Notes under the pieces: model-generated | What the model was told of the DNA's origin: nothing | The model's database searches: none | What the model saw: the letters and a program-made list of their open reading frames with translations, nothing else | In this document: piece by piece, positions 475 through 56,764 of the stretch | How the letters are laid out: every line of letters starts with the position of its first letter | Numbering within the stretch: the first letter of the stretch is position 1 | Source of the DNA: Pseudomonadota bacterium | Lineage (GTDB): Bacteria; Pseudomonadota; Gammaproteobacteria; DASZBR01 | Length of the DNA: 64,000 bases | Direction: 5' to 3' | NCBI GenBank assembly: GCA_021777765.1 | Contig: JAJYDF010000001.1 | Coordinates: forward strand, 170,495 to 234,494 | Made by a program: the position numbers and the translations under genes

Positions 475-660
475 GTAGCCTGGGTAGAGCAAATGATAAT
501 TTTATTTAAATCGCATGTATAAAATTACATAGGATATTATTTCAAACCAAGGTGGAACCCGGGACATTACTCCCGGATTCCGCCTTAGGAAAAAGTTGTT
601 AGAAAGTATTTCTGAGTTGAGTGATTCTTTTTAAATCATCATTTGCTTCATCCAGGCTAC
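475..660. repeat. REPIN/MITE-like element, full copy (TIR GTAGCCTGGGT.GAGC.AA...; central GG.GGAACCCGGG..CCCGGATTCCGCC palindrome)
   Basis: 21-23 bp terminal inverted repeats tgtagcctgggtagagcaaatga / tcatttgcttcatccaggctac; same architecture as >=13 other copies. Confidence 0.85.
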
Positions 661-681
661 GAGCTACGAGCTACGAGCTAT
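661..681. repeat. 7-bp tandem repeat (gagctac x ~3) extending the right terminus of the element
   Basis: caggctac gagctac gagctac gagcta read directly. Confidence 0.7.
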
Positions 682-792
682 CAGTTACGATTAAATTGAT
701 TACAAAATGACAATTTCATTATTGGTAGCAAAAGAGTAAAATAGACAAAATTAAACATTGTACTTAGCATTATTTTCTAAAGGTAACATCCT

Positions 793-54828: not shown

Positions 54829-56661
54829 ATGTTTAATAGTGGCGATGTTCAGGCTAAAACGCCTGCGGAATTAGAAAAATTAGACTTCGATAAGAATGTT
54901 AATAAATTAAAAAACTTGTTGGGTGAAGATTTCCACTATATAAAACATTTAGGTGCTGGTGTTGCTGGAGATGTTTATCTCTGTCGATATACAGGAAATC
55001 ATGAAAATATAAAAAAATTATGTGATATTCAAAGTAGATTGTGTGTCAAAATCCCTGCGAAAAAATTTGATCTTAATGATGAGTCAGCTTTAGCTGAGGA
55101 ATTATTTCAAAAACAATCATCACCTATTGAAAATCAAAAGTATATCGTTGGTGTTCCTATTAAAAATCAAGAAACAGTCGTTGCATTATGTATGAATTAT
55201 GTCTCTACTAAAGATACTGCAACTGAGACAATTGCATTTAGCTTAAAATCTTTTTTGAAATCATTTTTCCAATCTATCGTTTATGGGCATGTTAAACACA
55301 AAGAATTTAGTGATAAAGTGCATAACGGACTCTATCAAGATATTGGTATTCACTGTGTACAGTTAATCAATGAAATGCATTCTATTCTAAAACAGTTTAA
55401 TGCAATGGGTTATTTGCATTTAGATATTGGCGCACGCAATTTCATTTTAAATAAACCCATTGTTGATGACGATGGCAATCTTTTAAAATTATCATTAGTG
55501 TTGTGTGATTATGGCTTGTCTGGTAAATGTAATGAACAAGGTGTGGTAAATACTGTACATCAGTCCAATAAAAAACCACTTACAGCAAGAGATTACCATG
55601 ATATTGCGGAAAATAAAGCATCTGTGCATACCGATATTTATGCGTTGAAGACGGCAATTATTGGAATGATTGCTTTAATCATAACTGATGTGATGCACGA
55701 CTATAGTATTTTGACTGTGGGTCAAAAGACGATTGAAGAATTCTATGAGATGAGGACTAAAAAAGAATATTATAAAAGTGACACTATAGTATTAACTCAG
55801 TTTTTACAGTGTATGACGTCATTTATGAGTTTATGTCCTGACCCCCACGTTAGGAATCAAATTAATCAACTTATTTTTTATTTCAGAGAATACATATTGA
55901 CGTTACCTGATGATAATTTATCTGGCGACCTCATGCATCAATTCGATCAAGATAAGCTTATGTTAGCCAATGAGAAATATTTCAATCATGTTGTTGAGAG
56001 TAAATGCAACAATATTAAAGATATCAATAATGAGAATGAAATAATGTCTTTATTGTTGAGTATTAAAAGATTGATGATGATACCTGTAACAGAGGAGTTC
56101 AAAAAATCAGCTAAATACCAACAAATTAAAGCGTTAGATAATGGTGACAAAATCAGGGATTATATTGCTGATAGAGTTAAAGTTGAAAATATAGCCGCTG
56201 CTAAAGCTAAATTGGATCCCATAGTTACTGAGGGATCAGCGCAATTGAAATGGATTGATAAAATAAACCAACATTTAAATGAGTGGCGCGAAAATCGAAA
56301 AGAAAATTTTCAAGAAATAAAATGGTTTGGTCAAGAAATAGAAAAAAGAGCGAACCAAATTATTAATGATATTATCACTGGGAAAATCAAATCTTTAGAT
56401 GAGGCGCAACAGCAATATATTAATATTGTCAGAGACATTAACCATAAAATTAGTGTTAAAAAAAATTCTTCTCAAGATAAACCCCCTAGTCTATTATCAA
56501 AAATGACATTAAATACTACGGGCTATGCATCTGCACAAACCAATCAAACTGAAGTAGAACCAATTGATGTGCCAAAAAATGTGAGCGGTTATGAAGGTGA
56601 GCAAATCGAACAAAAAGAAATTGTACGCCAGCACCCTGGTCGCAAAAAGAGAGACAAATAA
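54829..56661 (+). CDS. Eukaryotic-like Ser/Thr protein kinase domain protein (effector-like)
   Basis: Gly-rich loop LGAGVAGDVY, catalytic loop HLDIGARNFIL (HxDxxxxN), DYG (DFG-equivalent) in LCDYGLSG; long coiled-coil-like C-terminal region. Confidence 0.6.
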   Translation: MFNSGDVQAKTPAELEKLDFDKNVNKLKNLLGEDFHYIKHLGAGVAGDVYLCRYTGNHENIKKLCDIQSRLCVKIPAKKFDLNDESALAEELFQKQSSPIENQKYIVGVPIKNQETVVALCMNYVSTKDTATETIAFSLKSFLKSFFQSIVYGHVKHKEFSDKVHNGLYQDIGIHCVQLINEMHSILKQFNAMGYLHLDIGARNFILNKPIVDDDGNLLKLSLVLCDYGLSGKCNEQGVVNTVHQSNKKPLTARDYHDIAENKASVHTDIYALKTAIIGMIALIITDVMHDYSILTVGQKTIEEFYEMRTKKEYYKSDTIVLTQFLQCMTSFMSLCPDPHVRNQINQLIFYFREYILTLPDDNLSGDLMHQFDQDKLMLANEKYFNHVVESKCNNIKDINNENEIMSLLLSIKRLMMIPVTEEFKKSAKYQQIKALDNGDKIRDYIADRVKVENIAAAKAKLDPIVTEGSAQLKWIDKINQHLNEWRENRKENFQEIKWFGQEIEKRANQIINDIITGKIKSLDEAQQQYINIVRDINHKISVKKNSSQDKPPSLLSKMTLNTTGYASAQTNQTEVEPIDVPKNVSGYEGEQIEQKEIVRQHPGRKKRDK

Positions 56662-56669
56662 TTTATTTT

Positions 56670-56764
56670 CTCCCGGGTTTCGCCAGTATATTCAATTTAT
56701 TATTTATTGGTTAGCTATAATTTTACATCATTTTATTTCATTATTTGGCTGCACCCAGGCTACA
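56670..56764. repeat. REPIN half-copy (right half) between kinase gene and permease gene
   Basis: ctcccgggtttcgcc...tttggctgcacccaggctaca. Confidence 0.8.

Follow-up and report, generated by a model that had tools for sequence, protein, structure and literature searches.

The 64-kb window examined here (64,000 nt of contig JAJYDF010000001.1 in the gammaproteobacterial assembly GCA_021777765.1) contains 14 repeat loci together with a gene predicted to encode a transposase of the type associated with repetitive extragenic palindromes (REPs), a REP-associated tyrosine transposase (RAYT). A preliminary description of the window had listed seven full palindromic copies and seven half copies of one element, and this census was borne out when every locus was read: all 14 positions hold REP-like sequence, seven as inverted-repeat elements and seven as "halves", and the ends of all 14 loci conform to CC(C/T)(G/A)GG. 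The basic unit is the half, 88-93 nt long and composed of a GTAG head, a 5' arm (CCTGGGT-GNA-GCC(A)), an interior and a 3' arm ((T)GGC-GAA-ACCCGGG). A full copy consists of two such units, its "terminal inverted repeats" being the two 5' arms and its "central palindrome" the two 3' arms, which abut or share CCCGGG. The earlier proposal of a dimerising ~95-bp monomer agrees with the occurrence of the unit either alone or as an inverted dimer, but the GTAG heads point outward, and the orientation given as head-to-head should therefore read tail-to-tail.

Repeat loci and the associated transposase gene

The terminus 23-mer has 5 matches in the window at ≤3 mismatches and the centre 20-mer has 2, against 0.00 expected in shuffles in each case. 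The central motif, described earlier as a near-perfect palindrome, is thus enriched, but the exact 20-mer GGCGAAACCCGGGTTTCGCC never occurs. A looser search of the window returns 20 termini and 20 central arms. All 20 terminus matches are followed by a 3' arm, which closes 19 units of 88-93 nt and one of 57 nt, and none is truncated in the interior; break points scattered along the half copies, the outcome named beforehand as fatal to a defined break, are not seen, as all window units reach the 3' arm. The total is 21 units in 64 kb, and extension by 10 kb past each window end (20 kb in all) adds no further copies. All 14 loci are intergenic, with an overlap of ≤23 nt onto the ends of open reading frames (ORFs), and 12 of them directly follow the 3' end of a gene.

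The seven doublets span 162-195 bp, and five of them have split centres. Units at 475-563 (+) and 572-660 (-) with an 8-nt spacer make up the doublet at 475..660, which is heterotypic in that the left unit carries GGGT/ACCC and the right unit GGAT/ATCC. The doublets at 13139..13323 (13139-13226 (+), 8-nt spacer, 13235-13323 (-)) and 15235..15429 (15235-15327 (+), 12-nt spacer, 15340-15429 (-)) are also heterotypic, and the right unit of the latter belongs to a subfamily with an AGCA/TGCT upper stem. The remaining split doublets lie at 28600..28792 (28600-28690 (+), 11-nt spacer, 28702-28792 (-)) and 38491..38652 (38491-38581 (+), 14-nt spacer, 38596-38652 (-)). The spacers of 8, 8, 12, 11 and 14 nt therefore slightly exceed the 8-13 nt reported before. 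Unsplit centres are confined to 26776..26951 (26776-26866 (+), 26861-26951 (-)) and 34118..34293 (34118-34209 (+), 34204-34293 (-)), where the two units overlap by CCCGGG; the left unit of the second has a compensatory ACCA/TGGT upper stem. The right unit at 38596-38652, only 57 nt long with a degenerate GCAA head, departs from the seven complete copies first listed and resembles the product of a deletion between direct repeats of a TTATTTAAT-like motif that many units carry near each arm. In the left unit of the same doublet, a TGA in the 5' arm (38511-38513) is the stop codon of the ORF ending at 38513. Next to the 475 doublet, three tandem GAGCTAC copies (661-681) abut its CTAC end, so that the other strand reads GTAGCTC three times and then GTAGCC; this triplet may be a product of slippage or a footprint of cleavage and rejoining at the GTAG head.

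Three singlets of 92 nt lie on the plus strand: 25184-25275 between rnhA and dnaQ, 26014-26105 downstream of dnaQ, with an interior 85% identical to that of the former, and 30376-30467 between lpxH and pilQ. Four lie on the minus strand, namely 27661-27751 (91 nt, GGAT/ATCC type, 60 nt past the stop codon of the RAYT gene), 31808-31898 (91 nt, between pilO and pilP), 56672-56763 (92 nt, between convergent genes) and 3791-3881, whose 5' arm has decayed (GTAATAATGGATGCAAGCA), so that its terminus is less regular than first described, while the 3' arm (CTGCTGAAATCCAGG) is intact. The TAG of GTAG in unit 31808-31898 supplies the stop codon of the pilO-like ORF 31895..32503 (-). In the pilMNOPQ cluster (28942-34077), lpxH (30496-31218) is embedded between a pilP-like gene and pilQ, and singlets flank the pilP-lpxH pair on both sides. 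Insertion of genes into a split palindrome, with the units at 30376 and 31806 as its separated halves around lpxH-pilP, was considered and rejected because the enclosed genes are housekeeping members of the pil operon and both halves are full REPs in themselves.

The product of the plus-strand gene at 27022-27600 (192 aa), which the preliminary description had missed although the gene explains the family, matches the NCBIfam model NF047646 (REP_Tyr_transpos) with 188 bits against a cutoff of 80 (E 6.6e-56); its Pfam Y1_Tnp match is weak (28 bits). The only match in the PDB is 4ER8, the Escherichia coli TnpAREP (E 7.8e-43), and the alignment to it covers the HUH motif (LPDHIHALW; H59-I-H61), the stretch WQRRFWEH (WQ(P/R)RFWEH) and the motif NYIHYNPVKHG with the catalytic tyrosine. 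All eight homologues compared retain H59, H61 and Y127. On these sequence criteria, by which the protein is nearer to E. coli TnpAREP than to the transposases of IS200, the gene can be assigned to the RAYT/TnpAREP family, in the E. coli-like group 2. Gene prediction yields an identical 192-aa product in three further assemblies (L001-L003). Owing to a tandem duplication of 14 bp (GGGATATATGAAAG twice) at 27487-27514, the last ~18 codons are out of frame, and the conserved RAYT tail (DW...FG; ...GIYESDWFTDLSQNENVFG*) can be read only in the +2 frame.

The gene is preceded by the doublet 26776-26951 and by an orphan 3' arm, GGTTAAACCCGGG, at 26961-26973 (+), also overlooked earlier, which has no 5' arm at the proper distance; it is followed by the inverted singlet 27661-27751. 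Repeats that flank a RAYT gene in this manner constitute a REPtron, a layout known from E. coli and others (PMC8266576). A RAYT inserted into a split palindrome (26014...27658) was rejected as an explanation, as the arrangement is the ordinary REPtron layout. The orphan arm and the leader that follows it up to the RAYT ATG (to 27021) are homologous to the REP-to-ATG leader in two related contigs, L097 and L103. The native upstream REP appears to have lost its 5' part where the doublet 26776-26951 now stands. Eight of the 14 loci (25184-34293) are no more than about 7.5 kb away from the RAYT gene, a post hoc observation that may reflect local spread or REPtron clustering.

Unit anatomy, relatives and the long interior

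The two arms of one unit are mutually complementary. The stem comprises a 7-bp lower helix (CCTGGGT/ACCCGGG, with a conserved T.G), a 3x3 internal mismatch (GNA/GAA) and an upper helix of 2-4 bp, and its strands are separated by ~70 nt, as an AT-rich interior of ~57 nt sits where an apical loop of 3-5 nt is usual. In all, 32 units from three lineages were examined, with pairing alignments of 25 and 30 units and a census of heads in 31. GTAG heads are present in 28 of these 31; the exceptions are ATAG in the right unit of the 28600 doublet, the GCAA of the short 38491 right unit and a decayed GTAA at the 3791 singlet.

The pairing is supported by covariation. The lower helix is 98.9-99.5% paired (98.9% on the alignment of 25 full units), and pair 11-90 is G-C in 18 and A-T in seven of these 25 units without a mismatch. 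In the upper helix of the same units, G-C is replaced by A-T four times and C-G by G-C three times. Across 30 units of the three lineages, two-sided changes occur at five pairs, one T-A to C-G exchange included, an outcome matched by one of 500 shuffles, and sliding the 3' partner by a single column lowers pairing from 89-91% to ≤55%. The prediction of single-stranded DNA (ssDNA) hairpins that had been proposed as a check places the closing helix in most minimum free energy (MFE) folds (18 of the 20 shown; ViennaRNA, DNA parameters), with a median ensemble probability of ~0.87. Of ten doublets, seven from the window and three from related loci, five are heterotypic, joining a GGGT/ACCC unit to a GGAT/ATCC unit, and hence the covarying pair is kept within units rather than between the halves of a doublet. 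By this covariation and by homology to a 31-nt REP, the terminus and the "central arm" of the preliminary description are the two strands of one stem, and the monomer is complete in itself.

Relatives were sought with a 5'-arm pattern in one genome per species, and the distributions that follow hold among the matches listed. A 31-nt REP, GTAGCCTGG(G/A)TGNAGCAAAGCGNAA(C/T)CCGGG, is present in many Legionella, Methylococcaceae, Burkholderiales and other contigs, where two units are frequently arranged tail-to-tail across a spacer of ~20 nt; in genomes including those of Legionella it reads GTAGCCTGGGTGAAGCAAAGCGAAACCCGGG and likewise forms doublets. The window unit at 25184 reads GTAGCCTGGGTGAAGC[C...57 nt...G]GCGAAACCCGGG, and with its interior deleted a window unit matches the 31-nt GTAG REP almost base for base. 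Units with the long loop are found in L097 (GCA_052916005.1, 33% GC; RAYT 67% identical), as two singles and a doublet, and in L101 and L103 (JGI sample 3300046334, 32-34% GC; alanyl-tRNA synthetase (AlaRS) 82% and RAYT 67% identical), as two doublets and two singles with a 3' arm, RAYT and inverted REP in that order. For AlaRS, the best matches from named organisms are 60-62% identical. The REP-RAYT layout of the window recurs at the homologous RAYTs in L097 and L103. Where RAYTs are 60-64% identical and genomes have 36-44% GC (L092, L099, L104, L105), the REPs are short (31-43 nt), and L105 carries both 32-nt and 43-nt versions. In contigs of the Bradyrhizobium/Xanthobacteraceae type (L024, L032, L037, L057, L064, L068, L078, L091), GTAGCCTGGATG...ATCCGGG arms enclose GC-rich hairpins in REPs of 58-95 nt. 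These and the 43-nt version of L105 indicate more than one independent expansion at the apex in this type of REP; the AT-rich, unstructured form of the loop appears, from the sequences compared, to be specific to a low-GC clade and recurs in two related lineages. Two patterns built for the long-loop subfamilies had no matches in metagenome contigs, a collection that evidently lacks the L101 sample, which carries the second pattern.

The interior is 79% A+T, and its pairwise identity of 0.638 is at the random level (0.615 in shuffled interiors), with slight conservation limited to ~12 nt beside each arm. No phasing of A-tracts was found in the interiors. Of 31 units measured, 30 nonetheless have a length of 88-93 nt and the other is the 57-nt unit; the 32nd unit, from L103, has 90 nt. 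As judged from these sequences, what is new in the family is an expanded loop conserved in length and not in sequence, in units about twice the published REP length. Drifted interiors beside conserved arms suggest that the copies are old and that the arms are under continuing constraint. As lengths stay at 88-93 nt in 31 of 32 units despite random-level identity, the interior could be a spacer of selected length rather than a merely tolerated expansion, a reading that can be offered only tentatively. If it holds, the RAYT clade or a host protein would need stem strands ~70 nt apart; such spacing might confine hairpins to long stretches of ssDNA or wrap a protein, and the family would form a REP class outside 20-50 nt that current REP and REPIN finders mis-score.

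Nature of the doublets and singlets

Unit anatomy, covarying intra-unit pairs, homology to short REPs and a linked RAYT together make it very probable that the elements are the GTAG-type REP family of the RAYT at 27022-27600, with the full copies as doublets and the half copies as singlets. The full copies are similar to REPINs and to bacterial interspersed mosaic elements (BIMEs), and the half copies result neither from truncation nor from cleavage at the centre. The seemingly exotic palindrome architecture hence resolves to a known REP/REPIN and RAYT system, and the puzzle is largely ordinary. By analogy with E. coli TnpAREP, the RAYT would bind the REP, folded as ssDNA, at its GTAG head, lower stem and mismatch zone, and the HUH/Tyr centre of the enzyme would cleave and rejoin the strand, a process thought to spread doublets. 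On this model, the mobile form would be the doublet, as in REPINs, and a singlet would be a remnant or a substrate in its own right; both the processing of these units by the RAYT and the mobility of doublets are carried over from the systems already described.

Several observations weigh against the assignment. Whole-unit folding energies are not better than those of shuffles (z -2.4 to +1.4); support for the structure therefore comes from covariation and homology and not from thermodynamics. When whole doublets are folded as ssDNA, the predicted MFE structure is one long hairpin with termini on termini (-25 to -39 kcal/mol for each window doublet), and raw pair counts are similar for inter-unit and intra-unit pairing, such that only the covarying positions discriminate between the two. 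The size of the units is beyond the published range of 20-40 bp (PMC3733652) or 20-50 nt (PMC8266576); the excess lies wholly in the apical loop. Finally, the conserved RAYT tail, which has FG(E) at its end, is lost through the C-terminal frameshift. In E. coli TnpAREP, the tail residues G160 and E161 contact GTAG, and a 13-residue C-terminal deletion raises activity while a 21-residue deletion impairs it; with the GTAG-contacting tail frameshifted, present-day activity of the window RAYT is uncertain.

An alternative is that a host function, such as transcription termination, protection of mRNA 3' ends or binding of nucleoid proteins, is the main reason why the repeats persist, with the RAYT irrelevant or dead and the conserved interior length reflecting that function. 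The position of the 12 loci directly behind genes agrees with this explanation, as do copies that appear old yet maintained, the frameshifted RAYT and the roles reported for REPs in 3' untranslated regions. However, sites resembling terminators or promoters show no enrichment relative to shuffles, a single terminator-like match touches a unit, the interiors lack A-tract phasing, and a host function leaves unexplained both the GTAG head and the co-occurrence of REPs and RAYTs across lineages. As the main explanation it is rather unlikely, though a host function may coexist with a REP/RAYT origin.

The preliminary description also raised cleavage or recombination at the palindrome centre, by which half copies would derive from full palindromes through centre-initiated breakage or deletion, for example by cleavage at a hairpin tip and subsequent loss of an arm together with the DNA beside it. 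Possible short traces of a lost partner follow some singles at a fitting distance: 26014 has CCC at 7 nt, 30376 has CCCG at 10 nt and L101_808 has TCTCGAGTTTAGTT at 12 nt. In the REPIN literature, singlets are argued to derive from doublets (PMC3116915). Such an origin is nevertheless improbable here. Downstream of 11 singles, no residual partner homology is significant (scores of 20-28 against a null of 23.5 +/- 3.4), and head-to-tail singles, which breakage at the centre cannot yield, occur in L097 (1352 and 1477, directly upstream of the RAYT) and in L101 (4938 and 4811, part of a three-unit cluster with 4622). The break at CCCGGG was correctly observed, but it marks the base of the REP stem and its natural 3' end, as in the 31-nt homologues. 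That the doublets are miniature inverted-repeat transposable elements of a DDE-type insertion sequence, with the halves as random truncations or solo ends, would suit their intergenic location, length of 160-195 bp and ~20-bp terminal inverted repeats but is extremely improbable, given that the search for target-site duplications at doublets gave no consistent direct repeats, that flanks share at most a pyrimidine before GTAG, singles included, that no insertion sequence with these ends exists in 83 kb (window and flanks), that the break points are unscattered and that the arms are homologous to GTAG REPs with a RAYT adjacent.

The window contains further repeats. A second, unrelated intergenic family consists of a T-run, a hairpin (CCTTCTCCCGCTTGCGGGAGAAGG) and then TGCCTTCGGTAGATGAGGGTG, and occurs at 22591, 23795, 36905, 58504, 58600 and 59629, as well as at positions 1-60 of L100, a contig whose AlaRS is 91% identical. 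An empty-site comparison of the 13139 locus with L100 showed that the site in that contig, downstream of a MatE gene, holds this different family. At 62246-62944, a small ORF resembling PhdYeFM antitoxins (62501-62779) is surrounded by three 84-nt repeats with many ACTCTGAAG motifs, and two tandem 99-nt copies, 85% identical, lie at 21714-21911 inside a 1114-aa ORF (18592..21936 (-)). Scans of the window with Rfam at gathering thresholds and for tRNA and tmRNA genes returned nothing.

Comparison with known systems

The closest characterized counterparts are the group 2 REPs of E. coli and their TnpAREP/YafM. Both systems share a 5' GTAG, a 7-bp lower stem ending in T-A (GCCGGAT/ATCCGGC in E. 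coli and CCTGGAT/ATCCGGG in the window), an unpaired zone in mid-stem, a short upper stem, an extragenic location and a RAYT flanked by a REP and an inverted REP. T11 and the equivalent of G32 are invariant or nearly so in the window-type units, though that G faces T, and in sequence they agree with the published group 2 determinants. The loop, in contrast, is ~57 nt and AT-rich as opposed to ~4-5 nt, the unit has 88-93 nt as opposed to 20-50 nt, and the mismatch zone is 3x3 (GNA/GAA) as opposed to 2x2. In the protein, K82, which contacts the bulge in E. coli TnpAREP, is replaced by serine, and the C-terminal tail is frameshifted, unlike that of the E. coli enzyme. The family thus offers a natural experiment in RAYT recognition, in which GTAG, the lower stem and the mismatch are kept and covary while the loop is ~15-fold larger, free in sequence and fixed in length.

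The 31-nt GTAG REPs (GTAGCCTGGGTGAAGCAAAGCGAAACCCGGG) have near-identical arms and the same tail-to-tail doublets with GTAG outward (L034, L082, L085), and RAYTs 55-64% identical to that of the window are linked to short REPs (L092, L104, L105) or found in Legionella genomes (P0036, P0065, P0116). They differ in a 3-nt loop and a ~20-nt spacer, against ~57 nt and -6 to 14 nt in the window. The Bradyrhizobium/Xanthobacteraceae REPs and the 43-nt REP of L105 likewise hold extra DNA between related arms, but the DNA of the Bradyrhizobium type is GC-rich and hairpinned, whereas the window interior is AT-rich, unstructured and unconserved in sequence. With the BIMEs of E. coli, which alternate Y and Z REPs, the family shares doublets that often join different inverted REP subtypes and the existence of three-unit clusters; conserved motifs in the linker, for instance an IHF site, were not found here, and the window has no long tandem arrays.

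REPINs (Bertels and Rainey 2011) also consist of two inverted REPs that are predicted to form one long ssDNA hairpin and have ends more constrained than the interior. The length rather than the sequence of the DNA between REPs appears constrained in REPINs (PMC3116915), and likewise here; the ratio of singlets to doublets in the window, 7:7, is below 2, as in REPINs. REPINs measure ~100 bp, against 162-195 bp for the window doublets, and half of the doublets here are heterotypic. The program RAREFAN pairs seeds within 130 bp by default, and because the ~20-nt 5' arms of a doublet are about 120-155 bp apart, it would probably score most of these doublets as singlets. Size-based definitions of REPs (20-50 nt, doublets of ~100 bp or seeds within 130 bp) can hence overlook genuine families in AT-rich genomes or misclassify them.

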